A stretch of 64,000 nucleotides of DNA from an uncultured Alphaproteobacteria bacterium (lineage in GTDB: Bacteria > Pseudomonadota > Alphaproteobacteria > Rs-D84 > CACZYB01), in NCBI GenBank assembly GCA_934246625.1, contig CAKQHZ010000001.1, positions 434,964 through 498,963 on the forward strand, read 5' to 3'. The stretch's first letter is position 1; each line of letters starts with the position of its first letter. Below the pieces are notes generated by a model. That model searched no databases and was not told the origin of the DNA. It saw only the letters and a program-made list of their open reading frames with translations. Both the position numbers and the translations under genes were made by a program. Below are positions 18,449 through 55,888 of the stretch, one piece after another.

Positions 18449-19486
18449 ATGAAACCATGTAATTGTTGCTGTTTCCCATTTGAAAGAATTATGTTAGAAG
18501 GTGATGGGGAGGTAAGTTTTTGTTGCCAAAGCAATAATTACAAGTATGTTTTAGGAAATATTTTTTCAGATTCCTTTGAGGATTTATGGTATGGTGAAAA
18601 GGCTATAAATTTTAGAAAATCGATTCTTGACGGGTCGTATAGATATTGCAATTTAGATGTTTGTGGTGATTTTTGTCCTTGGAATTGTTTTGATGCGAAT
18701 GGTAAAGATAAAGAAAAATTATTGTATCCACCATATCCAAAATATGTAAATATAAGTTATGTGTCTTCTTGTAATGTAAGATGTATGACTTGTCGAGATA
18801 AACTTTGTTTGGAACGACCTGAAGATACTGAGCAATTTGATAAAATTACAGATAAAGTTATTGATTTGTGTTGCAATGCTAAAACGGTTTATCTTGATGG
18901 TTCAGGTGAGCTTTTTACAAGTAATCATTTAAAGAAAATGGTTCATAAGTTGGTTGATAAATATCCGAATTTAAAATTTCATATACATACTAATGGTTTG
19001 CTTTGTGATGAACAGCATATTAAAGAATTTGGTTTAGAAGGTAGGATTTTATCACTTAATATTTCTATACACTCAGCAACAAAGAAAACTTATGAAACTA
19101 TAGTCAGAGGAGGGCATTGGGAACAACTTATTCAAAATTTAGAGTATATAAAAAGTTTGAATATTAAAGAAGTTTATTTCATTTTTGTTTTACATTCTCT
19201 TAATTATAAAGAAATGCCAGCTTTTGCAAAAATGGCAAAAAAGTATAATGCAAAAGCAAAGTTTTGGAGATTTAGAAATTGGGAAACATCTCAGATGTGT
19301 AGAGAAATTGATAGATATTCATGTTGGGAAAGTTGGCATCCTGATTATAAGAATTTTATAAAGATTTTAAGCAAACTTAAACGTGTAGGGAATTATATAC
19401 TTGCAGAACCTTTTTTACGAAAACTTCAAGCTGGCGCAAAGGATTCCTTTGTTGATAAAATTGTTAATTTTTTTAATAAAAAATAG
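18449..19486 (+). CDS. Radical SAM enzyme with N-terminal SPASM/twitch-like Cys-rich domain (345 aa). Function unknown.
   Basis: CxxxCxxC (SSCNVRCMTC) about 110 aa from the N-terminus. The N-terminal 90 aa CNCCC...GDGEVSFCC...LGNIFSDSFEDLWYGEKAINFRKSIL...CNLDVCGDFC resembles a SPASM auxiliary-cluster domain. Confidence 0.65.
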   Translation: MKPCNCCCFPFERIMLEGDGEVSFCCQSNNYKYVLGNIFSDSFEDLWYGEKAINFRKSILDGSYRYCNLDVCGDFCPWNCFDANGKDKEKLLYPPYPKYVNISYVSSCNVRCMTCRDKLCLERPEDTEQFDKITDKVIDLCCNAKTVYLDGSGELFTSNHLKKMVHKLVDKYPNLKFHIHTNGLLCDEQHIKEFGLEGRILSLNISIHSATKKTYETIVRGGHWEQLIQNLEYIKSLNIKEVYFIFVLHSLNYKEMPAFAKMAKKYNAKAKFWRFRNWETSQMCREIDRYSCWESWHPDYKNFIKILSKLKRVGNYILAEPFLRKLQAGAKDSFVDKIVNFFNKK

Positions 19487-22214: not shown

Positions 22215-22272
22215 TTCTTTCTCCTTTTCTTCTATTATAACAAAAAATCTGGGATTTAAAAGTTTTTTATAC

Positions 22273-22301
22273 TTGAAAAGGTGATTTTCAGTTGTTATCT
22301 A
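22273..22301 (+). promoter_or_regulatory. Candidate heat-shock/sigma-70-like promoter upstream of grpE (CTTGAAA -35-like box)
   Basis: CTTGAAA at 22272-22278 resembles the sigma-32 -35 consensus. The downstream -10 is weak (TATCTA). Confidence 0.3.
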
Positions 22302-22336
22302 TATATTATATAATAACTTTATAAAGGAATTTGGAA

Positions 22337-23014
22337 ATGACAGATAAAAAATGGAAAAATAAGCATTATGAAAATACAGATGTTAAAAAAGAATCTGAGT
22401 GTGGTTGTAAGTGTGGTGAAAAATGTAATTGTGAAAAGGATAAATGTGCATCTGGAAATTGTGAATGTGGAAAGGATTGTAAGTGCCATCATGAACATCA
22501 TTGCAATGATTGTGGTGAAGGTGTTGAATGTCCAGATAATGGTTGTGAAAAGGAATTTGATAAAATTGAAAATTTAAAGGCTGAAGTTGCTTCTTGGCAA
22601 GAAAAGTATATAAGGACTTTGGCTGATTGTGAAAATGCAAAACGTCGTGCCGATATTGATGCAAAAAATATGATTGATTATAAAATCGCAAAATTTGCAA
22701 AGGATATGTTGCCTTTGGCTGATAATATTGCTTTGGCTTTGGCTTCTATTGAAGGAAAAGTTGATAGTAGTGTTATTGAAGGTTTGAAATCTATACAATC
22801 TGGTTTTATTAGCGCATTAGAAAAAAATAATATTTGCAAAATTAAAACTGTGGGTGAAAAACTTAATCCTCAGGAACATTGTGTTGTTATGCAAGTTGAT
22901 GACCCAAATGTAGAAGAAGGTGTTGTTGCACGTGAGCTTCAAGCTGGTTATAAGTTGGGTGATAAGGTTATTAGAGAAGCAATGGTCGCAACTTCAAATG
23001 GAAAAAAGAACTAA
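22337..23014 (+). CDS. grpE: Nucleotide exchange factor GrpE with an about 60-aa Cys/His-rich metallothionein-like N-terminal extension
   Basis: GrpE core ...ENLKAEVASWQEKYIRTLADCENAKRRADID... onward. The N-terminus is CGCKCGEKCNCEKDKCASGNCECGKDCKCHHEHHCNDCGEGVECPDNGC. SD AAAGGAA 6 nt before ATG 22337. The ORF track begins at an upstream TTG. Confidence 0.85.
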   Translation: MTDKKWKNKHYENTDVKKESECGCKCGEKCNCEKDKCASGNCECGKDCKCHHEHHCNDCGEGVECPDNGCEKEFDKIENLKAEVASWQEKYIRTLADCENAKRRADIDAKNMIDYKIAKFAKDMLPLADNIALALASIEGKVDSSVIEGLKSIQSGFISALEKNNICKIKTVGEKLNPQEHCVVMQVDDPNVEEGVVARELQAGYKLGDKVIREAMVATSNGKKN

Positions 23015-23369
23015 TTATTCTTTGGGTATAGAGGCAGAAGATAGAGCAAAATCGATTCTTCAAGATAAAGGTTTTGAGATATTGACTTCTCGGTATCAGG
23101 TGGGATATGGGCTTGATGCAGGAGAAGTTGATATAATTGCAGTTGATAAGTCAAAAAAATTATTATTGTTTGTTGAAGTGAAAAAGCGAAAAACTTTGGA
23201 GCTTGCAGGAAATTCAATATTTCAATCACAAATGGATAGAATTTATAATTCAGCAGAGGTTTTTTTATCAAAAGAACCGGCTTTTTGTGATTTTGATTGT
23301 CGATTTGATGCAGTGTTATTTGATGATAAATTTAATTATGAATATTTAGAAAATGCATGGGGATTTTAA
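22998..23369 (+). CDS. yraN: YraN-family (UPF0102) predicted endonuclease
   Basis: GIEAEDRAKSILQDKGFEIL..R......GEVDIIAVDKSKKLLLFVEVKKRK matches the UPF0102 signature. Overlaps the grpE 3' end. Start chosen at MEKRT; the ORF track begins at 22920. Confidence 0.6.
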   Translation: MEKRTNYSLGIEAEDRAKSILQDKGFEILTSRYQVGYGLDAGEVDIIAVDKSKKLLLFVEVKKRKTLELAGNSIFQSQMDRIYNSAEVFLSKEPAFCDFDCRFDAVLFDDKFNYEYLENAWGF

Positions 23370-23416: not shown

Positions 23417-23501
23417 GGGAATGTGGCGGAATTGGTAGACGCGGCGGACTCAAAATCCGCTGGGGCGACCCTTGAGAGTTCGATTCTCTCCATTCCTACC
23501 A
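23417..23501 (+). tRNA. tRNA-Leu (anticodon CAA), class II, encoded CCA
   Basis: Hand-folded: acceptor GGGAATG/CATTCCT (G1-U72 wobble), anticodon stem GCGGA/TCCGC with loop CTCAAAA, long variable arm, T-arm GAGAG-TTCGATT-CTCTC. Confidence 0.85.
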
Positions 23502-23625
23502 AACTTTTAAAGTAAAGGCGATTGCCAAACAAGGATACAAACTTACAATTCTAAAACTCCTCACTATCGCTGTTCGTCGTTAAGAATTATTCGTGTTTGT
23601 GTTCTCTGATTCCTGCTAAATTTAG

Positions 23626-23655
23626 AATCAGCATTTTTCGGTGCTGATTTTTTTA
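23626..23655 (+). terminator. Rho-independent terminator (ATCAGCA-N8-TGCTGAT plus T6). Overlaps an alternative upstream hairpin.
   Basis: 7-bp stem at 23627-23648 followed by TTTTTT. The competing hairpin CTGATTC/GAATCAG (23606-23631) shares the AATCAG segment. Confidence 0.55.
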
Positions 23656-23747
23656 TGAAAATTTTCTTGTTTATTTTGAAATAATATTATAAAATGGAAT
23701 TAGTTTTTATAGAAATGTGAAAACTTGGGATTAATGAGGAGAAAACT

Positions 23748-24056
23748 ATGATGAAAAAATTTCTATTATTTTTTTCTATTTTATTTTGTGTATTTTTCAA
23801 AGTGAATTCTTCCGTTTATGCAACTGTAAGCAGCAATTCTCTTGAAAAAATTCTATTTCAATATTGTGTTCCAAAAGAAGGAAATTGTGATGTAAAAGCC
23901 ACATATAAAAACGGTAAATGTATTTGTCCTGGTGATAAATTATATATGGACAGAGAATGTTTTAAACCTGTTTGTCCTTCTGGAACTTATATCTATTATA
24001 GTAACGACACAGATTCTTGTGGTGCGGGAAATTACAGAACAAAAGTCAGAAATTAA
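23748..24056 (+). CDS. Small secreted Cys-rich protein (102 aa) with a QYCVPxEGNCDVKATY module
   Basis: Signal peptide. 10 Cys in about 75 mature residues. Paralogous to 43731..44147. Confidence 0.7.
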   Translation: MMKKFLLFFSILFCVFFKVNSSVYATVSSNSLEKILFQYCVPKEGNCDVKATYKNGKCICPGDKLYMDRECFKPVCPSGTYIYYSNDTDSCGAGNYRTKVRN

Positions 24057-24150
24057 GTTTATGGGAGAACTACTTTCATAATTTTTGTCTGTTCTCTCTC
24101 CATTTAAAAATTTGTCTTTTATATAATAATCAAACAAAAAGGAGAAGACT

Positions 24151-25227
24151 ATGAACAATAAAAAATATATAATATCGGTAATAGGTGTGTTATCTTTTGT
24201 TGGAATTGCACACGCTGCTATTTTTCAATGCAGAACTTGTGAAGAGGGGACTTATGGTGATGGAACATCTGTAAGTTGCACAAAATGTCCGACTGGGGCA
24301 GTTTGTCCTGAGGGAACTGGAGCACCAATTTATTTATCAAATTATAAAGATAAGTTATTATCTGTATGTGGTGAGATAGGTAAGGAAATTGCAATAGATA
24401 CAGGTTTTTCTTCCAGTAATTTTGTTTCAGAAATGATTGATAAACAAAAAGTAAAAATAAATTATAGTGGAGATATAATTAAAAAGGGAGAAAGTGGTTA
24501 TAATTATGCAAGGGCATATTATGAAGTTAGTTGTTATGATCTTGATGGTTATTATGCAAGTAGTGGATATAAAGCTATTACAGATTTTATTCAAAGCAAA
24601 ATATGTAATGATGAATCAGAAGTAAAAAGTCATTTAGAACCTATGAGTTCATCATCAACTTTAACACCTGGAATATATAGGATTGATGTAGCTGGTGCCG
24701 GTGGTGGCGGTGCAGGTGGAAATGCTTGTGGATGGTGTTATGGAGCTGGTGGAGGTTATGGAGGTAATGGTGATTTGCAGACTAGATATATATATTTAGT
24801 TGATAATCAGCCTTATAATTATGTTGTTGGTGCTGGTGGTGGTAATGGTTGTGGTTCTGGTTGTAATCATCGTGGAGTAAATGGTAAGAAAGGTGGAACA
24901 TCATCCTTTACTTTGTTAGGAAATGTTTTTGAGGCATTAGGTGGAGATGGTGGAGAATCTGCACATAGTGGTTGTGATGTGTCTAATGGTAAAAATGGTG
25001 CTGCTGCTGGTAATGGTTTAGGTGGTGTTGGTGGTGAGAATAGATATGGTAACAAATGTGCTTATGATGGAAATACTGGTTGGGTAAAGATTTATCAAAT
25101 TGGTATGAGAAAAACCGGTTGTCCTTCTTTAAGACCATCTACTTCTTCTGGTGGATGTTCTTCAGGTGGTTATTTTGGCGGTTGCTCTACAGGTGGTTAT
25201 TTTGGTGGTTGCTCAGGAGGATACTGA
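24151..25227 (+). CDS. Secreted Cys/Gly-rich protein (358 aa) with an ephrin-receptor/TNFR-like CxxCxxGTY...CxxCPxG repeat, a glycine-rich domain and C-terminal GGYFGGCS repeats
   Basis: Signal peptide ...GIAHA. CRTCEEGTYGDGTSVSCTKCPTGAVCPEGTG. Gly-rich stretch VAGAGGGGAGG...GGGYGGNGD...VVGAGGGNG... C-terminal GGYFGGCSTGGYFGGCSGGY. Confidence 0.75.
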   Translation: MNNKKYIISVIGVLSFVGIAHAAIFQCRTCEEGTYGDGTSVSCTKCPTGAVCPEGTGAPIYLSNYKDKLLSVCGEIGKEIAIDTGFSSSNFVSEMIDKQKVKINYSGDIIKKGESGYNYARAYYEVSCYDLDGYYASSGYKAITDFIQSKICNDESEVKSHLEPMSSSSTLTPGIYRIDVAGAGGGGAGGNACGWCYGAGGGYGGNGDLQTRYIYLVDNQPYNYVVGAGGGNGCGSGCNHRGVNGKKGGTSSFTLLGNVFEALGGDGGESAHSGCDVSNGKNGAAAGNGLGGVGGENRYGNKCAYDGNTGWVKIYQIGMRKTGCPSLRPSTSSGGCSSGGYFGGCSTGGYFGGCSGGY

Positions 25228-31961: not shown

Positions 31962-32528
31962 ATGAAAATCATGAACAAAAAATTACTTTTATTATATATG
32001 TCTTTATATCCTTGTATAACAAATGCAAATGTATATATGTGTTTGCGATGTCCTGTTGGAACTTATGGTGATGGAAAATCATCATATTGTTCACCTTGTC
32101 CAAAAATAGATGGAGCACATTATTTGGAAGATTCAAAGAATTGTGAATGGGAGTGTGATGAAGGTAAAGTTGTTGTTGCAAAATATGCGAATGGTGGAGG
32201 TTGTTGCACTGAACCAGCTAAACCAAAATGTCCTTCTGTTAAAGTTTATGTTTTCGGTAACTGTTCAGGTTCGGGTTCTCATGGAGGATCTTGTCAACTT
32301 CAATATTCAAAAACTTTGGAATGTGGAGAAAGTTTTCAAAATGATGGGAGTGCGACAAATACACCAAATGGACAATATGATTGTATAACGATGGCTTGTA
32401 GAAGCGGAGGTTTTGTTAAAAATATTAATGGAGAAATGTGGTGTTATAAAGACTCCTATGATATGAAAAAAAATAAAAATGGACGTCATTATGATAGGTC
32501 AGGTGATGCTAAATGTCTAAAAGAGTAA
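31962..32528 (+). CDS. Secreted Cys-rich protein (188 aa) with ephrin-receptor/TNFR-like CLRCPVGTYGDGKSSYCSPCP repeat
   Basis: Signal peptide. 25 Cys. SD AAAGGGAGA. Motif shared with 24151..25227 and 44255..44908. Confidence 0.7.
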   Translation: MKIMNKKLLLLYMSLYPCITNANVYMCLRCPVGTYGDGKSSYCSPCPKIDGAHYLEDSKNCEWECDEGKVVVAKYANGGGCCTEPAKPKCPSVKVYVFGNCSGSGSHGGSCQLQYSKTLECGESFQNDGSATNTPNGQYDCITMACRSGGFVKNINGEMWCYKDSYDMKKNKNGRHYDRSGDAKCLKE

Positions 32529-33665: not shown

Positions 33666-33785
33666 TTGAAACCTCCTTGGTTAGTTGAACATACTTTATA
33701 TATAGCTTTTTTTTAGGAGTTTTTCAATATAAATAATTTTTGATTTTTATCTATTTTTATGTTATTATTGAAAATAAAGGAAAGA

Positions 33786-35114
33786 ATGGGAATGAAAAAA
33801 ATTTTATGTTTTTTGATGGTTTTTACTTTTGCCGTTGAGGGCTTTTCTGCTCCACGAAAGAAGGCTGGCTCTTCTAAACGTGTAGCAACAGCAGGTAAGA
33901 TAAGGACTGCTTCTTCAACCACAATAACGGCCACAAATTCAACAGAGGAAGATTCTTTTGAATCTTGTATGGATAATATTTGTAAATCAGAACTTTATGA
34001 AGATAAGGGTAGATGTAGATGTTCATCTCAACTTGGAAGAATTGAAAAGGTTCTTCGTGATATTGAAAAAATCCAAAACCAAGCAGATGAAGATAATAAG
34101 TTGATGGAAACTTTGATGAATGTTTCAAATACTGCAAATGTAGATGATACTGTTGGAAGTGTTTATGATAATATTAACAGTATTGAAAAAAAGGCAAAAA
34201 CTATTTCTGCAAGGGCTGTGGATAAAGATTTACTTGTGATGGAAGGATTGCCTTTGTATGAAGTAGGATTAAAGAAATGTAAGGGCTTTTTGGATACACT
34301 TTCATCAAAAGATAAGGATAAAAAGAAAGAAGAATATACAAAACTTATTGAAGGAGATTGTTCTGCTTATACAACTATTTTAAAAGAAAAGGCAGATAGT
34401 GCACAAAATCTTTTGGTGCAAGCACAAAAAAATCGCGAAAAGTTTGATGAACAGGAATATAAAAAGCGTAATCAACTTGATACTAATGCTTGTTATGTAG
34501 AATATGAAGCATGTGCAAAAACCGAATGTGGCACAAACTTTAAGTATTGTAAGGATAGTGCAAAACAAGCGACCGTCCTTAAAAAGTGTCAAGCTGTGAA
34601 TTATGGTAAATGTGAAGATAATAAAACAACGGTTATTGCCGATGTAAAAAAGTATATTGCAAAGGAGCTTGAAAAGGTAAGATTAGTTGATAATTGTAAG
34701 GCTGCAATGGGTCATCTTCAAAATGGAAAATGTTTGTTTAAGGTTATGTATATTGCAGATAAATGTTCAAGTGGTAGTGGTTGTGGATCTTCTCAAGTTG
34801 TATGGGCGACACCACGTCAAAAATTCAAATGTGATGATACACGCGGTAGTTTTAAAGAGCTTATTGCTGGATGTTATGAAAGTTGTTATATTATTGGACC
34901 AAATGATGAAAAGATTTATAAGGGAACAAACCATAGTGATAATATGGGTGGTCAAATTGTTGGTGCAATATTTTCTTTGGGTATAAGTGTTGCACATACA
35001 CTTCCTGGATGTGTAGAAAAAAAGAATATTGATACTTTCTATACTCCTGCGGCTCCTGATGGTTGGGGCGAAGATGGTTATCCAACGAATCCAGAATATA
35101 AGGGAATTTTATAA
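33786..35114 (+). CDS. Secreted Cys-containing coiled-coil protein (about 442 aa) with post-signal KR/S/T-rich tract
   Basis: Signal peptide MGMKKILCFLMVFTFAVEGFSA, then PRKKAGSSKRVATAGKIRTASSTTITATNSTEED. About 28 Cys. Start chosen at ATG 33786 (SD AAGGAAAG) rather than the upstream ATG 33759, which lacks an SD. Confidence 0.65.
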   Translation: MGMKKILCFLMVFTFAVEGFSAPRKKAGSSKRVATAGKIRTASSTTITATNSTEEDSFESCMDNICKSELYEDKGRCRCSSQLGRIEKVLRDIEKIQNQADEDNKLMETLMNVSNTANVDDTVGSVYDNINSIEKKAKTISARAVDKDLLVMEGLPLYEVGLKKCKGFLDTLSSKDKDKKKEEYTKLIEGDCSAYTTILKEKADSAQNLLVQAQKNREKFDEQEYKKRNQLDTNACYVEYEACAKTECGTNFKYCKDSAKQATVLKKCQAVNYGKCEDNKTTVIADVKKYIAKELEKVRLVDNCKAAMGHLQNGKCLFKVMYIADKCSSGSGCGSSQVVWATPRQKFKCDDTRGSFKELIAGCYESCYIIGPNDEKIYKGTNHSDNMGGQIVGAIFSLGISVAHTLPGCVEKKNIDTFYTPAAPDGWGEDGYPTNPEYKGIL

Positions 35115-43406: not shown

Positions 43407-43435
43407 AGGGTGTTAATTTTTTAACACCTTTTTTT
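43407..43435 (+). terminator. Rho-independent terminator after fabZ (GGTGTTAA-TTTT-TTAACACC plus T7)
   Basis: Perfect 8-bp stem followed by TTTTTTT. Confidence 0.75.
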
Positions 43436-43730
43436 GTTGCTTAAATCTTTATTATGTAATATCATAAAATTAGATTTGGATTTATCCAAGTTTAGCGTCC
43501 ATAGGTGGACGTGGGACTGTCGTAAGTTCTTTATATACTGCCGTATGTTATTTTACATACGATCTTTGTCCCCACCTTTAGTGGGGAGTCTTTGGTGTAT
43601 GTCCAGAGGATATTTTTATATTCTTAAAGACCAAGGAAATCATCTTGCAGTATATATGATTTACGAACTCCCCGCCATTTATGTGATAAATGGGAAAAAT
43701 TTTGTGATACACAAAAAAGGGGAAGAAACC

Positions 43731-44147
43731 ATGAAAAACTTATCTAAAGTACTTTGTATTTGTGCGGGGGCTATCTCGGCAAATCCTATTAACCTTCAGG
43801 CTAAAACTTTGCTTGAAACCTTGACTCAATACTGTGTTCCGACGGTTGGCAACTGCGACAAAAAGGCTACCTACAATACCTCTGGCAACTATTGCGATTG
43901 TGCCAACATCAACAAATTCTATAACTCTTCGAATCGTTCTTGCGAGAACTGTATCCTCGGCTCTTTCGCAACCTCAGACTATAAAACTTGTGAGCCTATT
44001 CATTGCCCTGACGGCTATGTTGCGACTTTGATTTCCAAAGGGGCGTGTCCAGATGGCTATACTTTGCAACAAATCAATGTGGCTTCGGGTTGTGGCGAGG
44101 GTTATGCGTTGAAGAAGTATAATCCGGCGACGAAGAGTTTTAATTAA
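43731..44147 (+). CDS. Secreted Cys-rich protein (138 aa), paralog of 23748..24056 (QYCVPTVGNCDKKATY module) but with a GC-rich codon style
   Basis: SD AAGGGGA before ATG 43731. Signal peptide MKNLSKVLCICAGAISA. The ORF body is about 43% GC against a genome background of about 30%. The upstream part of track ORF 43434..44147 is rejected as leader. Confidence 0.7.
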   Translation: MKNLSKVLCICAGAISANPINLQAKTLLETLTQYCVPTVGNCDKKATYNTSGNYCDCANINKFYNSSNRSCENCILGSFATSDYKTCEPIHCPDGYVATLISKGACPDGYTLQQINVASGCGEGYALKKYNPATKSFN

Positions 44148-44254: not shown

Positions 44255-44908
44255 ATGAAAACCATGAAGAAAAAGAAATTAGCGGTGATAGGGATAGCGG
44301 GAATGCTCTCTGCAACACCTGCCTCCGCTCAAACATTTTATCAATGTATGCCTGTAAAGTGTAAAGCAGGAGAGTATGTAAGTGGAAGTAGTTGTGAGCG
44401 TTGCACTGGAGGTTATCGTTGTCCAGGAGATAATAAAAGGTATGCGTGCACAGGCGAATGGGAATATGCAACACCAGGAAGTTCATACTGCTCTACCTTT
44501 GGCCCAAGTGATGTTCGTATTTGGGTTGGTGGTGGCTGTGCTGATAGAGATAGAAACGATCAAGCTCTAATGTCTAAGTTAGTGCCAATTACATCTTTTT
44601 CTACAAAGAAGGAAAATGGTCAAACAAAATATATTACAAACTTTAGTATTCTATCAGACAGAAACAAATATGATAGATCAGGTTTCTTTAATTGTTTAGA
44701 TAATAATTTTAAAAAAAAATATACTTCACAAGAACAATGGTGTAAATATGCAAGTATTACTCTTTTAACAACTCCAAATGCTGGTGGTTCATCAGACTTT
44801 ACCGTAAAACAATATAGTAAAGTATATGGAACGTTAGAGTTTCGATCTAGTTTTGAGTGTTTAAGATTAGGTCCAGGCGGTGGTTGTGCAAATAAATGTA
44901 ATAATTAA
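44255..44908 (+). CDS. Secreted Cys-rich protein (217 aa) with ephrin-receptor/TNFR-like CKAGEYVSGSSCERCTGGYRCPG repeat. Compositionally mosaic.
   Basis: Strong SD GAAGGAGA. Signal peptide ...ATPASA. The 5' 330 nt are about 43% GC and the 3' 320 nt about 25% GC. Confidence 0.7.
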   Translation: MKTMKKKKLAVIGIAGMLSATPASAQTFYQCMPVKCKAGEYVSGSSCERCTGGYRCPGDNKRYACTGEWEYATPGSSYCSTFGPSDVRIWVGGGCADRDRNDQALMSKLVPITSFSTKKENGQTKYITNFSILSDRNKYDRSGFFNCLDNNFKKKYTSQEQWCKYASITLLTTPNAGGSSDFTVKQYSKVYGTLEFRSSFECLRLGPGGGCANKCNN

Positions 44909-52258: not shown

Positions 52259-54352
52259 TTATTGTCCATATTTATGGTCAGGATTTGCATCTTCAATCAT
52301 TTGATCCATTTCATCTTCAATTCTTAACATAACATCGTTTTGAAGAAATACCATAATTCGTGTTCCCGCAGCAACGGTAAATGGAATGCTTGTTTGTGCA
52401 CTTTGGTCAATTAACTTTTGCATAGTTGTTTTCCAATTTTGCTCGATTTCCAATTTCATTTTATCCTTTGATGACATATTTGCTATTGTTTGTGTATCAG
52501 TTGGGGACCAGCCATATTCAGGTTGGTTTTCTGTATTAATTACGTCAGATACATTTTCTCCATCATCATTTATAAATGTATCTAATGCTTGATATGTTCC
52601 ATCGGAACGTTTTACACGTGTTACAAATTGAGAAGAAGTTGGGAATAATGCTTCCATTGCAACAGGAAGAACAGAATAAAGTAATGGTTTTACGAATAAA
52701 TCACGCATATATTCGGTATCGTTTTTACCTGCTACACCCTGACGACCTTGGGCATCTGCAGTATAGTTAACAACTTGAGTTAAATCAAATTCGGCACCAT
52801 CTGGACGTATAAGTCGGTCCCATTCTATGCTGATTTTTTCAATTTCTTGAAGACCTGCACCTTTAGGAGCGGTTGCTTTTCCAATAAGTTGTGAGCCAGC
52901 AGGGACAATAATTGTGCGTCCATCACCACCATAAACATTTCGTTCAACCGTTGCAACGGCAGGTGTTTCGTTTTCAAAATTTGTTCCATCATTTTCAGCA
53001 TAATCTATATTGCCGAAGTAAATTGGTCTGTTTAACACAGCTGGAATTGGTTTTGATTGACGAAGAACGTATCTTTCATCCTTTGGCATAGAAGATACTT
53101 GACCAGTGCTTGTTATAGTAAATGGAATAAGTGAGTTTTTTTGTTTGCCAATTATGTTTAATGGGTCGTCTGCCTTATATAAATCATAGTCAACATCTTT
53201 TCCACCATAACCTTCTTGTTTCACAGCAAGGCGGTTGTTCCAAACATCTTCGAAATTTGGATTAAAGTTTTCGGAATTGATTGTTTGCATTACCTCGTCC
53301 AAAACAGGAAGAGTTAGTTCAATTCTTTTTTCTTCGGATTTCTTTTTATCAAATACGGCACCCTTTCCAATGATTTTTCCAGTTGCAGTTTCAAGGACCA
53401 TTCCGTCTTCTTGAAGTGAGCCGATTATTTTTGAACAATTTGGTGAAAATACATCATTATTTGATTGAACCCAACCAATAAATGTTCCAGAAAAATCATA
53501 GGCTTTACTTGCATATTTCTTGCAATCGCTTGGATATACAGTTCTTTTTTCTTGTGCCTTTGGTGTGATTGCAGGAGCCACTGCATTTGTGAATTCTTCG
53601 ACTTCTTCCTCGTCTGCTGGTTCTATATCTTCATTATCATAGATTTCTTCATCATCATCTTCTTCAAAAAATTCATCTACTTTCTCTTGTTGTTGAGGTT
53701 GTGTTTGCACAGGTGCAGGTTTTTCTATTGAAGAGATTGATAAATTGACCTTGAAACTTTTTTCGGGTGAATTTTCGTTAGTATTATTTAGTTCATTATA
53801 TTTTATAAGTATAAATATATTTTTATTTTCAACCTTTGTAGGGGTCCAAACAACATTTATTATACATCCAGATTCTGGTGTAATTGATGCTCTTTCAGTG
53901 CAATCTTGGTCAAAGCCAAGTCCATTTACAGATGTTGATAATGAAATATTGTTAATTTTGATTGGATTATTTGCAACAGATAACATAATAGAGTTAAATG
54001 TTTCATTTCCAATAATTATATTTTCAAATTTTATATTTTGTGGGTCTGCAGTTAAAATAGGTGAAATATAAGTGAAATTTTGAGTTGTTTCCTTTTTTGT
54101 TTGTGCTGGGGTAGATGGAGTTTGCTCTATGGTTTCAATCTTTTTATTTGTTTGGTTTGCTGTGATAATAGCTCCTAATACAAAAATGCCAAGCATTACA
54201 AATGCGATAAAAAGCAAAATGATATTTGTCTTTTTTGTGGCAAGTTCAGATTTGCTTTTTTTATCGTTTGGAAGCATTTCCGCATTTTCTTCTGATGTTG
54301 AAGAAGATGGAGTATTTGTTGCTTTACCCTTTTTCTTAAATAAATCTACCAT
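52259..54352 (-). CDS. virB10: Type IV secretion system protein VirB10/TrbI with an unusually long (about 450 aa) N-terminal/periplasmic linker region (697 aa total)
   Basis: N-terminal cytoplasmic tail plus TM helix. Acidic/Pro-Gln-rich linker. C-terminal barrel motifs RTIIVPAGSQLIGKA...ISIEWDRLIRPDGAEFDL...DAQGRQGVAGKND...IPFTVAAGTRIMVFLQNDV. Confidence 0.75.
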   Translation of the reverse strand: MVDLFKKKGKATNTPSSSTSEENAEMLPNDKKSKSELATKKTNIILLFIAFVMLGIFVLGAIITANQTNKKIETIEQTPSTPAQTKKETTQNFTYISPILTADPQNIKFENIIIGNETFNSIMLSVANNPIKINNISLSTSVNGLGFDQDCTERASITPESGCIINVVWTPTKVENKNIFILIKYNELNNTNENSPEKSFKVNLSISSIEKPAPVQTQPQQQEKVDEFFEEDDDEEIYDNEDIEPADEEEVEEFTNAVAPAITPKAQEKRTVYPSDCKKYASKAYDFSGTFIGWVQSNNDVFSPNCSKIIGSLQEDGMVLETATGKIIGKGAVFDKKKSEEKRIELTLPVLDEVMQTINSENFNPNFEDVWNNRLAVKQEGYGGKDVDYDLYKADDPLNIIGKQKNSLIPFTITSTGQVSSMPKDERYVLRQSKPIPAVLNRPIYFGNIDYAENDGTNFENETPAVATVERNVYGGDGRTIIVPAGSQLIGKATAPKGAGLQEIEKISIEWDRLIRPDGAEFDLTQVVNYTADAQGRQGVAGKNDTEYMRDLFVKPLLYSVLPVAMEALFPTSSQFVTRVKRSDGTYQALDTFINDDGENVSDVINTENQPEYGWSPTDTQTIANMSSKDKMKLEIEQNWKTTMQKLIDQSAQTSIPFTVAAGTRIMVFLQNDVMLRIEDEMDQMIEDANPDHKYGQ

Positions 54353-54373: not shown

Positions 54374-55888
54374 TTATTGAGTCCTTACAACACTGCATGG
54401 AACACTTTGAAGTGAAAGTTTTTGACATATTTCATCAGCAACTTCTATCTTTGCAAATGGTCCAATTCTTAGGCGATAAAATTCTCCGCCGTAATATCTT
54501 TGTTGTCCGATTTCATCAACACCACTTGTTTCAACAGAATAGAAAGGTGTGTATTCGTCAAGCCATGGAAGTTTTTCAGTTAATTCAAGCCATTTGTTTT
54601 CAAGGTCGACAACTGACTTTCCTTTAAAGACTTCTACACTTACGTTTTGTGAATTTTGTTTTACAAGTGGAACGTAGTGGTTTGGAAGCACAGATGCGTT
54701 TGTCTTTGTTTTTGGTAAAAGTGAGTTATATATAATTTCATTTTCTTGAGATGTATAAGGTTGCATACCTCCCATAGGATAACCACCAACCATATTTGTC
54801 ATAGGGTATGACAAGTTTTGTGGATACATATATGCACCAGTTGTCATATCTCCAGCATAGCCAGTTGTAAGCATCTCTTGTCCAGACATATAATTTCCAG
54901 ATAATGTTGCGTTTGCATCACCAATGTTTCCAGCAACTGCAACCAAATCTTGTGGAGGTGGTGGATTAGAGAGCAAGTATGGTTTTGAACGAAGTTTTAT
55001 ACAAACAATTCTTTGTCCGTTTCGTAAAACCAAATCGCCGATAGCTTCAACAACAAGAAGACGGCTTTGTGGACCTTCGGTTCGTGAACCTACAGGAGTT
55101 TCGCCACCTTCGACCAATAATGAAACTACAGGTCGTTGATTCATATTTAATGCCTTTTCACCGAAGTCAATGTATGTGAAAATTTGATCACGCCATACAC
55201 GTTCAGGTGCAATTACGTAATCATCAGGATTTGGAACGAATACATCTAAATCAAAACGAAATTCTGTTGGGTCAACATTTATACTTTTTATCCAACCGAA
55301 ATCTTCGCCTTCCCAATCATTATCACCCACATCTTTGAAACTTTGTCCGCCCATCATTGATTTTGATGATACAAAGTTGTTTGATGAACCAGATGAAGAT
55401 GCACCGTTGCTTCCTTTTCTGTATTTATATGGAACAGAAATATCAATTACAGAAGAGGTAATTTTTTCAGAATTAAGTGGTTCTGATTTTAGGTAAAAGA
55501 CATATTTATTTCCACTGTTTCCGAAAATGAATAGGTTTGTATCAGCCATTGCACGACCATCAACAGGAGAAATCATAAATGTATTTTTTTCAACTGGACG
55601 ACCATCAAAGAAATCCTTGTCCCCGACATAAGCGTCCTTTATGGTTTCCCATTCTGGGAAGTTAATGATTGTTAACATACCATCACGAAGTTTGATAGGC
55701 ATAACTGATCCTGGTTCCCATTGTATTTTTTGGAAACCTGGTTTTGTTTGGTTTTCTCCCATATTTTGCATTGGGTTATCCCATGCGTTTTGTGTTCCAA
55801 AACCAACCCCAGGAACAACTTCTTGAGAATAAACTGGAGCTGTTAAGAGTGAAAATATTAAAGGTAAAATTTTAAAAATATTTTTCAT
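54374..55888 (-). CDS. virB9: Type IV secretion system protein VirB9 fused to a C-terminal SPOR-like domain (504 aa)
   Basis: N-terminal VirB9/TrbG signature (IQWEPGSVMPIKLRDGMLTIINFP...TNLFIFGNSGNKYVFYLK). C-terminal 80 aa (...FYSVETSG...FYRLRIGPFAKIEVADEICQKL...VPCSVV) resemble a SPOR peptidoglycan-binding domain. Confidence 0.8.
   Translation of the reverse strand: MKNIFKILPLIFSLLTAPVYSQEVVPGVGFGTQNAWDNPMQNMGENQTKPGFQKIQWEPGSVMPIKLRDGMLTIINFPEWETIKDAYVGDKDFFDGRPVEKNTFMISPVDGRAMADTNLFIFGNSGNKYVFYLKSEPLNSEKITSSVIDISVPYKYRKGSNGASSSGSSNNFVSSKSMMGGQSFKDVGDNDWEGEDFGWIKSINVDPTEFRFDLDVFVPNPDDYVIAPERVWRDQIFTYIDFGEKALNMNQRPVVSLLVEGGETPVGSRTEGPQSRLLVVEAIGDLVLRNGQRIVCIKLRSKPYLLSNPPPPQDLVAVAGNIGDANATLSGNYMSGQEMLTTGYAGDMTTGAYMYPQNLSYPMTNMVGGYPMGGMQPYTSQENEIIYNSLLPKTKTNASVLPNHYVPLVKQNSQNVSVEVFKGKSVVDLENKWLELTEKLPWLDEYTPFYSVETSGVDEIGQQRYYGGEFYRLRIGPFAKIEVADEICQKLSLQSVPCSVVRTQ

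Follow-up and report, generated by a model that had tools for sequence, protein, structure and literature searches.

The 64-kilobase (64-kb) window, meaning the whole stretch of DNA analyzed here, is a housekeeping region (32% G+C) of a Gram-negative alphaproteobacterium and carries a grpE gene whose predicted product joins a complete GrpE domain to an N-terminal tail rich in cysteine and histidine. Hadza human-gut metagenomes are among the sources of contigs carrying the identical GrpE, and the host is an uncultured human-gut alphaproteobacterium found in Hadza samples. An earlier note on this DNA had described the gene as an in-frame fusion of a metallothionein-like Cys/His cluster to an otherwise ordinary GrpE, and in this it was right: the peptide that it quoted is exactly what the plus strand encodes at grpE, and Pfam recognizes the GrpE domain directly behind the cluster (143.7 bits, residues 72 to 220). 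The features of the locus are collected in Table 1.

Table 1. Features in and around grpE (positions in the window; aa, amino acids; nt, nucleotides; ORF, open reading frame)
Feature	Position	Strand	Description and evidence
grpE coding sequence	22337..23014	+	225 aa plus stop; ORF; Pfam PF01025, E = 5.6e-42; gene finders on independent assemblies give identical start and length
Basic N-terminal leader, aa 1-21, MTDKKWKNKHYENTDVKKESE	22337..22399	+	M[ST]xKK[FW]KNK start kept clade-wide, Cys-less tails included
Cys/His-rich metallothionein-like tract, C22-C70, CGCKCGEKCNCEKDKCASGNCECGKDCKCHHEHHCNDCGEGVECPDNGC	22400..22546	+	49 aa with 14 Cys and 4 His
Degenerate internal duplication, 36-nt (12-aa) unit, GEKCNCEKD / SGNCECGKD	22417..22477	+	Direct repeat with 36-nt spacing, 80% identity
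HHEHH histidine block, aa 51-55	22487..22501	+	Direct reading; His retained in close orthologues (C-x-HH-K-V) and in outgroup tails (KHHHEHHRCG, P0036)
Sub-motif D-C-G-E-G-[VI]-x-C-x4-[C/H]-E, aa 58-71	22508..22549	+	Most conserved part, directly before the long helix; D, C, G, E and second C invariant in alignment A3
Canonical GrpE domain, aa 72-220	22550..22996	+	Long helix, helical bundle and beta domain; Pfam profile positions 15-164 of 165
Promoter-like element CTTGAAA-N17-TATCTAT	22272..22302	+	CTTGAAAA and TATCTAT invariant in 10 orthologous upstream regions (alignment A2)
Shine-Dalgarno sequence AAGGA	22324..22328	+	8 nt before ATG; direct reading; orthologues have an A/G-rich AAGGA/AAAGG box at equal distance
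yraN (UPF0102)	22998..23369	+	Pfam PF02021; 17-nt overlap with the grpE 3' end; independent assemblies have it at the matching position

The GrpE domain, its tail and the reading frame

The PF01025 score lies far above the family cut-off of 25.8 bits, and the protein also matched the PDB GrpE chains 4ANI, 3A6M, 1DKG and GrpEL1. The best NCBIfam GrpE model, NF010738, reached 130.9 bits against a cut-off of 137, and all 25 of the models listed, from 26 matched, fell below their cut-offs; these models begin at about residues 65 to 75. Scores just below the equivalog cut-offs indicate a divergent GrpE, for which the Pfam assignment is unambiguous. In an AlphaFold2 model computed from a 33-sequence alignment, a helix spans residues 69 to 138, a second helix spans residues 144 to 163, and beta strands occupy residues 166 to 220, with a predicted local distance difference test (pLDDT) score of about 90 from residue 69 onward. 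The protein is predicted to be an ordinary GrpE nucleotide-exchange factor for DnaK.

Residues 1 to 68 received pLDDT values of 36 to 56 in the same model, with no confident fold, and are predicted to be disordered. Query residues 71 to 223 align with residues 38 to 196 of Escherichia coli GrpE (1DKG), and because residue 71 is aligned to E. coli residue 38, the tail takes the place of the disordered residues 1 to 33 of that protein. These E. coli residues were recently demonstrated to bind the substrate groove of DnaK through I17-I18-M19, and typical bacterial GrpE tails are Glu-rich and include two or three hydrophobic residues (PMC12915176). The window tail contains no hydrophobic cluster of the IIM kind. 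Homology with solved GrpE dimers places the tail, by prediction, at the N-terminal end of the long helix, where the tails of both protomers emerge side by side.

The cysteines of the tract stand at C22, C24, C26, C30, C32, C37, C42, C44, C48, C50, C56, C59, C65 and C70, and the histidines stand at H51, H52, H54 and H55; this layout comprises five CxC, one CxxC, two CxxxC, three Cx4C and two Cx5C motifs. Cysteine makes up 29% of the tract, which includes no aromatic and only one aliphatic residue and is therefore without a hydrophobic core for ligand-free folding. Three more cysteines, C98, C167 and C182, lie in the GrpE core and bring the total for the whole protein to 17. The earlier note had given this total as the count for the cluster, which contains 14, although its count of four histidines was correct; it had also ended the cluster too early, at position 22520, and so missed the last two cysteines. 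Cys accounts for 1.3% of the remaining ORFs of the window; at that frequency, a 49-residue stretch would hold 14 or more Cys with a binomial probability of about 2e-15, and the other housekeeping ORFs of the 64 kb never exceed 4 Cys in any stretch of 50 residues.

The frame is unbroken from the ATG at 22337, which is preceded by an in-frame stop at 22322, to the stop codon at 23012 to 23014. The first in-frame ATG, GTG or TTG past this start falls at residue 95, within the conserved GrpE helix, and a functional GrpE must therefore contain the Cys tract. Conservation of the basic leader across the clade likewise fixes the translation start. Eighty-eight independently assembled contigs from NCBI, ENA and Logan, up to 714,895 bp long, encode the identical 225-residue protein, which appears in 135 blocks of the collection searched. 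A cluster at 90% identity holds 36 variants, and all 15 of the 15 that were read are 225 residues long with no tail Cys altered. In two within-species variants (P0133 and P0138), the change W6C (codon 6, positions 22352 to 22354) adds a fifteenth tail Cys, and no variant read loses one. On this evidence, the Cys tract is coding and its translation starts at the ATG at 22337. The two objections foreseen in the earlier note, a frameshift between the Cys-rich ORF and grpE and a true start downstream of the tract, fail against the agreement among independent assemblies and against the lack of any internal start ahead of the GrpE core.

Distribution, conservation and growth of the tail

A survey of one genome per GTDB species returned 517 GrpE relatives, and among the best 80, which were inspected, Cys-rich tails occurred only in L001 to L005, with 7 to 10 Cys each. 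These five are metagenome-assembled genomes (MAGs) labelled Alphaproteobacteria or "bacterium," with 31 to 36% G+C, and at least one comes from an animal gut (water-deer rectum). All five share the PBP1A-folD gene order beside grpE, and in three of them yraN was detected, each time directly behind grpE. One sequence (L006) was incomplete and was left aside, and the tails of 70 of the 74 other alphaproteobacterial GrpEs are acidic and Cys-free. The four exceptions are L052 with 1 Cys, L073 with 3 Cys in 38 residues, L078 with 2 Cys and L080 with 5 Cys; the extensions of L078 and L080 (156 and 443 residues) are implausibly long and derive from over-extended start calls, leaving L073 as the sole plausible exception. 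More distant GrpEs listed by a profile search (n = 89) had 87 Cys-free tails, one tail with 1 Cys and one with 2. Both sets agree with the statement in the earlier note that such a cluster is not a standard GrpE feature.

A wider range of tails was found in a collection of 5.8 billion proteins, from which the best 120 of 7,738 GrpE homologues were inspected. The clade is represented there by about 40 clusters, and in a neighbor-joining tree of the core sequences, tails of 3 to 24 Cys occur throughout the clade, with scattered losses to 1 Cys (P0009/P0011, P0021 and P0023). The extremes are P0034 with 24 Cys and P0025 with 20 Cys, both without His. Orthologues at the syntenic locus (PBP1A-folD beside grpE-yraN) carry tails of 1 to 24 Cys, and the hyper-Cys and Cys-poor forms share one orthologous grpE-yraN locus. 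Outgroups have 0 or 1 tail Cys, and some of their tails, including that of a Rickettsiales MAG, are short and His-rich with one Cys, as seen in P0035 (KHHDEHRR...) and P0036 (KHHHEHHRCG). Both His tails are similar to HHEHHC in the window tail, and the Cys expansion may therefore have been preceded by a metal site based on His. Within the survey, the Cys tail is clade specific, found only in this low-GC gut alphaproteobacterial clade.

Conservation at the nucleotide level was read from a codon alignment of the window grpE with ten orthologues, in which all indels are in frame; the selection statistics come from seven distinct close sequences. Among the latter, Cys is invariant in seven columns, and invariant columns are more frequent where Cys is the majority residue (7 of 10) than elsewhere (6 of 32; Fisher p = 0.005). 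At every invariant Cys column, synonymous flips between TGT and TGC occur among the orthologues. The proportion of nonsynonymous differences (pN) in the tract is 0.06 to 0.43, compared with a proportion of synonymous differences (pS) of 0.51 to 0.89, with one pair above 1 (saturated), and the corresponding rate ratio (dN/dS), where computable, is about 0.02 to 0.6 in the tract versus 0.02 to 0.15 in the core. The D-C-G-E-G-[VI]-x-C-x4-[C/H]-E sub-motif survives in P0015 and P0017, relatives that are without the upstream Cys array. At the position of the last, helix-proximal Cys, three orthologues have His and one has Arg, and the change to His appears to be a ligand-conserving swap. Together, these patterns argue that the Cys positions are selectively maintained.

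The tail also bears traces of how it grew. The two copies of the degenerate duplication lie at 22417 to 22441 and at 22453 to 22477, and the tract DNA is otherwise not a simple repeat. The gene for P0025 (L092, positions 1557 to 1649) contains a 36-nt tandem array of 2.6 copies with 92% identity, and L093 contains in-frame tandem repeats with periods of 6 and 18 nt (positions 1195 to 1254); these relatives with recent tail repeats have 20 to 24 Cys. In-frame duplication of a Cys-containing unit of 12 residues has built part of the tail, which is actively expanding in relatives.

Upstream signals and neighboring genes

The ten loci that share the invariant upstream element encode proteins that are only about 46 to 80% identical, and CTTGAAA-N17-TATCTAT occurs once in the 64-kb window, compared with 0.03 occurrences expected. 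CTTGAAA is similar to the -35 box that sigma-32 recognizes in heat-shock promoters, making the element a candidate heat-shock promoter. Its distance to a CCCCAT-like -10 sequence exceeds the E. coli sigma-32 consensus, and the designation "promoter-like" is kept for this reason. A generic sigma-70 scan returned 7 sites versus 6.4 expected from shuffled sequence and thus performed no better than shuffles. Rfam identified only three tRNAs in the whole window and no RNA thermometer or riboswitch 5' of grpE, and no CIRCE element is visible on direct reading of the 122-nt upstream region.

Downstream, yraN is probably cotranscribed with grpE, and the overlapping grpE-yraN pair is kept in those related loci whose downstream sequence was recovered. 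In a mechanical ORF listing, yraN extends to a GTG at 22920, but translation probably does not begin there. On its other side, grpE has folD as its neighbor, encoded on the opposite strand; dnaK, dnaJ and hrcA are not adjacent to grpE. Two minus-strand ORFs that overlap the gene (22319 to 22501 and 22383 to 22700) were rejected on conservation and frame evidence. The window also encodes trigger factor, DnaN, IleRS, MnmG, PBP1A, FolD, IF-2, NusA, RseP, BamA and the ATP synthase beta subunit.

Several other features of the window were observed. Minus-strand genes similar to VirB4/TrbE (198 to 2633), VirB10 (52259 to 54352) and VirB9 (54374 to 55888) point to a type IV secretion system with parts that lie about 50 kb from each other. 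A radical SAM protein encoded on the plus strand (18449 to 19486) has an unusual order of domains, with an N-terminal SPASM match (residues 7 to 68) ahead of the radical SAM core (residues 105 to 262); its gene adjoins mnmG and is conserved in L001 and L002. In the relative L094 (2084 to 3597), infB directly follows yraN; in the window, a tRNA-Leu and two Cys-rich, probably secreted ORFs stand between these genes (23417 to 25227), and this tRNA-adjacent stretch looks like a lineage-specific insertion. The window contains six Cys-rich ORFs (5 to 9% Cys) in total, all on the plus strand and with no significant Pfam match: 23748 to 24056, 24151 to 25227, 31962 to 32528, 33759 to 35114, 43434 to 44147 and 44255 to 44908. 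The two that were read by eye, beginning at 23748 and 24151, have signal-peptide-like N termini, and the six probably encode secreted, disulfide-rich proteins. A QYCVPxxGNCDxKATY motif is common to two of them, and a C-x2-C-x2-GTYGDG-like motif is common to three; the ORF at 24151 to 25227 has a Gly-rich end and weak matches to Gly_rich_2 and NCD3G. These six ORFs are unrelated to the cytoplasmic GrpE tail.

Proposed roles of the tail and comparison with known systems

The reading favored here, with a likelihood somewhat better than even, is that the tail is a lineage-specific metal-thiolate-binding module and that GrpE doubles as a metal buffer or sink. In this clade, the Cys/His-rich tail stands in place of the acidic, disordered one usual in GrpE, and in a reducing cytoplasm each chain could use its 14 thiolates and 4 imidazoles (28 and 8 in the dimer) to coordinate soft or borderline metals. 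Candidate metals would be Zn, Cu(I), Ni or Cd, held as metal-thiolate clusters in the manner of metallothioneins. A co-chaperone that is presumably abundant and probably heat-shock induced could in this way act as a metal sink or buffer, as the tail of HspA does for nickel. In Helicobacter pylori, Ni is bound by the His/Cys extension of HspA; cells that lack the extension are viable but contain less Ni and tolerate it less well, and the extension also affects hydrogenase maturation (PMC3856676). Because the tail stands at the site of the pseudo-substrate tail of E. coli GrpE, metal loading or thiol oxidation might also alter the release of substrate from DnaK. A stronger version, which is unlikely, would have the metal-thiolate module replace the DnaK pseudo-substrate tail and gate the Hsp70 cycle, with GrpE serving as a direct metal/redox sensor for DnaK. 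Substrate release or nucleotide exchange would then shift when the paired tails, at the mouth of the thermosensor helices, are loaded with metal or have their thiols oxidized.

A number of observations count against metal binding by the tail. When five tails (those of the window, P0025, P0034, P0004 and P0019) were scanned against Pfam at E <= 10, the lone match was to Metallothio_5 on the window tail, with E = 0.05 and 14.2 bits versus the 25 of the cut-off. The tail had no match at E <= 10 among PDB sequences, and a 56-residue tail query retrieved nothing at E <= 0.001 from 1.84 billion representatives, a result that carries little information for a query so short and biased. The 64-kb window is also without metal-homeostasis, hydrogenase or urease genes that would indicate a particular metal. 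In addition, the tail has a higher dN/dS than the core. Its cysteines differ greatly in number and spacing among relatives, and some lineages (P0009/P0011, P0021 and P0023) have lost the array; GrpE can therefore function without it, and its evolution is rapid, like that of low-complexity regions.

Instead of storing metal, the same thiols might act as a redox or metal switch. Zinc would be held in the reduced state, and oxidants would produce disulfides within or between subunits (for example, C70-C70 at the helix mouth), altering nucleotide exchange or substrate release such that DnaK would hold its clients during oxidative stress, by the logic of Hsp33 and GrpEL2. Such a switch would fit the position of the best-conserved cysteines nearest the helix start (DCGEGxxC-x4-C), the single Cys kept at the helix-proximal position in the outgroups P0035, P0037 and P0038, and the replacement by the tail of a segment that competes with substrate on DnaK (PMC12915176). 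It would also fit the anaerobic human-gut habitat and the Cys-based redox control reported for vertebrate GrpEL2 (reviewed in PMC12987570). However, a switch needs few cysteines and leaves arrays of 14 to 24 Cys and their growth by tandem duplication unexplained, and some orthologues have His or Arg in place of the helix-proximal Cys. On balance a switch is rather unlikely to be what the tail is for, and storage and switching are compatible with each other. It is less probable still that the tail is a neutral, fast-evolving, low-complexity linker whose cysteines arose by slippage of a TGT-rich 36-nt unit and persist by drift. Neutral slippage would account for the tandem 36-nt repeats in P0025 and their degenerate copy in the window, for the range of 1 to 24 Cys at one locus with N/Q/T-rich tails in some relatives instead, and for the disorder predicted by AlphaFold2. 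It does not sit well with seven Cys columns that stay invariant through saturated synonymous divergence and TGT/TGC turnover as the intervening residues vary, nor with the 14 within-species variants read, of which none alters a tail Cys or the protein length. The AT bias of the genome would, moreover, favor tracts of Asn, Lys or Ile over Cys, and the other housekeeping proteins of the window have no comparable tract.

An iron-sulfur (Fe-S) cluster in the tail, possibly spanning the dimer and linked to Fe-S maturation in the way that mitochondrial Hsp70 and Mge1 are, is very improbable. The general analogy is helped by the alphaproteobacterial host and by three conserved Cys per chain (C-x5-C-x4-C), which make six in the dimer, but the tail has no ferredoxin-type CxxCxxCxxxCP motif, its cysteines far exceed the need of one cluster, no isc or suf genes lie nearby in the window, and no Pfam Fe-S domain matched. 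An artefact, whether a frameshift, an assembly error or a true start farther downstream, can be set aside almost with certainty: the same 225-residue protein was recovered from three sources, orthologues with different DNA keep the frame with indels that are all multiples of three, the next start is at residue 95, and both the Shine-Dalgarno sequence and the leader are conserved, with nothing found in its favor.

Under the metal-buffer reading, GrpE would be the second essential co-chaperone recruited as a metal carrier, after Helicobacter HspA. If the gating proposal were also true, the tail would constitute a third GrpE input, the others being temperature and, in Mge1 and GrpEL2, redox state sensed by a single residue. 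The tail suggests a route by which metal or redox status could enter the Hsp70 cycle. GrpE tails are a timely subject, as the disordered N terminus has newly been shown to bind the substrate site of DnaK (PMC12915176), and the clade offers a natural test of whether GrpE can do without the pseudo-substrate function of its tail. The graded series of 1 to 24 Cys at one orthologous locus is well suited to comparative biochemistry, and the human-gut host from Hadza samples gives the tail a possible bearing on metal handling in the gut ecosystem.

With its roughly 29% Cys, CxC arrays, lack of aromatic residues and richness in K, E, G, N and D, the tail resembles metallothioneins, including those of animals and plants, SmtA/BmtA, MymT and Pseudomonas PmtA. 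Further points of likeness are predicted disorder in the metal-free state and enlargement through tandem copies of short units that contain Cys. Metallothioneins are free, small proteins, whereas the window tract is the tail of a 225-residue chaperone cofactor and thus shares with them the Cys-rich CxC/CxxC arrays and the absence of aromatics but not the free-standing form. Neither the bacterial metallothionein family PF02069 (BmtA/SmtA) nor any other Pfam metallothionein family matched the five tails at gathering score, and a profile of nine aligned tails (alignment A3) yielded 378 word-sharing candidates among the 5.8 billion proteins, none with E <= 10. As far as its sequence indicates, the tail is metallothionein-like by composition only and belongs to no metallothionein family; the description in the earlier note holds for the composition (14 Cys in 49 residues, five CxC, no aromatics) and not for any defined family.

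Canonical bacterial GrpE tails, such as residues 1 to 33 of the E. coli protein, likewise lie N-terminal to the long helix and are predicted to be disordered, but they are Glu-rich, contain hydrophobic DnaK-binding residues (IIM) and are almost always free of Cys. DnaJ and SlyD also belong to chaperone systems and have Cys/His sites for metal. DnaJ, a member of the same Hsp70 system, has CxxCxGxG zinc fingers. These form a fourfold repeat, whereas the tail includes a single CxxCGxG-like string (C56-N-D-C59-G-E-G) in which C56 is unconserved in orthologues; there was no Pfam DnaJ_CXXCXGXG match, and a DnaJ-type zinc finger was rejected. Hsp33 has a Zn(Cys)4 center. The occurrence of its CxC-x(27-32)-CxxC pattern in the tail (C22/C24 and C56/C59) was judged to be due to chance, as Cys is abundant there and C56 is not conserved. 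Vertebrate GrpEL2 (Cys87), yeast Mge1 and Hsp33 provide a further parallel in that thiol chemistry tunes chaperone activity under oxidative stress (PMC12987570); they use one to four residues in folded parts, whereas the window protein has a 49-residue array outside the fold, and no homology was detected. The tail of SlyD is C-terminal and His-rich and takes part in nickel delivery (PMC3856676), in contrast to the N-terminal tail described here.

A full-text literature search found no description of a GrpE with a cysteine-rich, metallothionein-like, histidine-rich or metal-binding tail; the words "zinc" and "metal" are absent from a 2025 review of GrpE-like factors, in which redox sensing is treated only by way of single GrpEL2 residues. 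The closest functional analogy is HspA, the GroES of H. pylori, an essential heat-shock co-chaperone with a lineage-specific, dispensable, disordered His/Cys extension that stores or sequesters metal (PMC3856676). HspA differs in belonging to the GroES/GroEL system and in having a C-terminal extension dominated by His with few Cys, whereas the GrpE tail is N-terminal, combines 14 Cys with 4 His, shares no sequence homology with it and is a predicted metal binder. Both nevertheless are lineage-specific His/Cys-rich extensions of a heat-shock co-chaperone, that on GrpE being restricted to one clade. A co-chaperone tail of the metal-binding type, a kind known from HspA, would now appear to be present on GrpE as well, for the first time as far as these searches reach.

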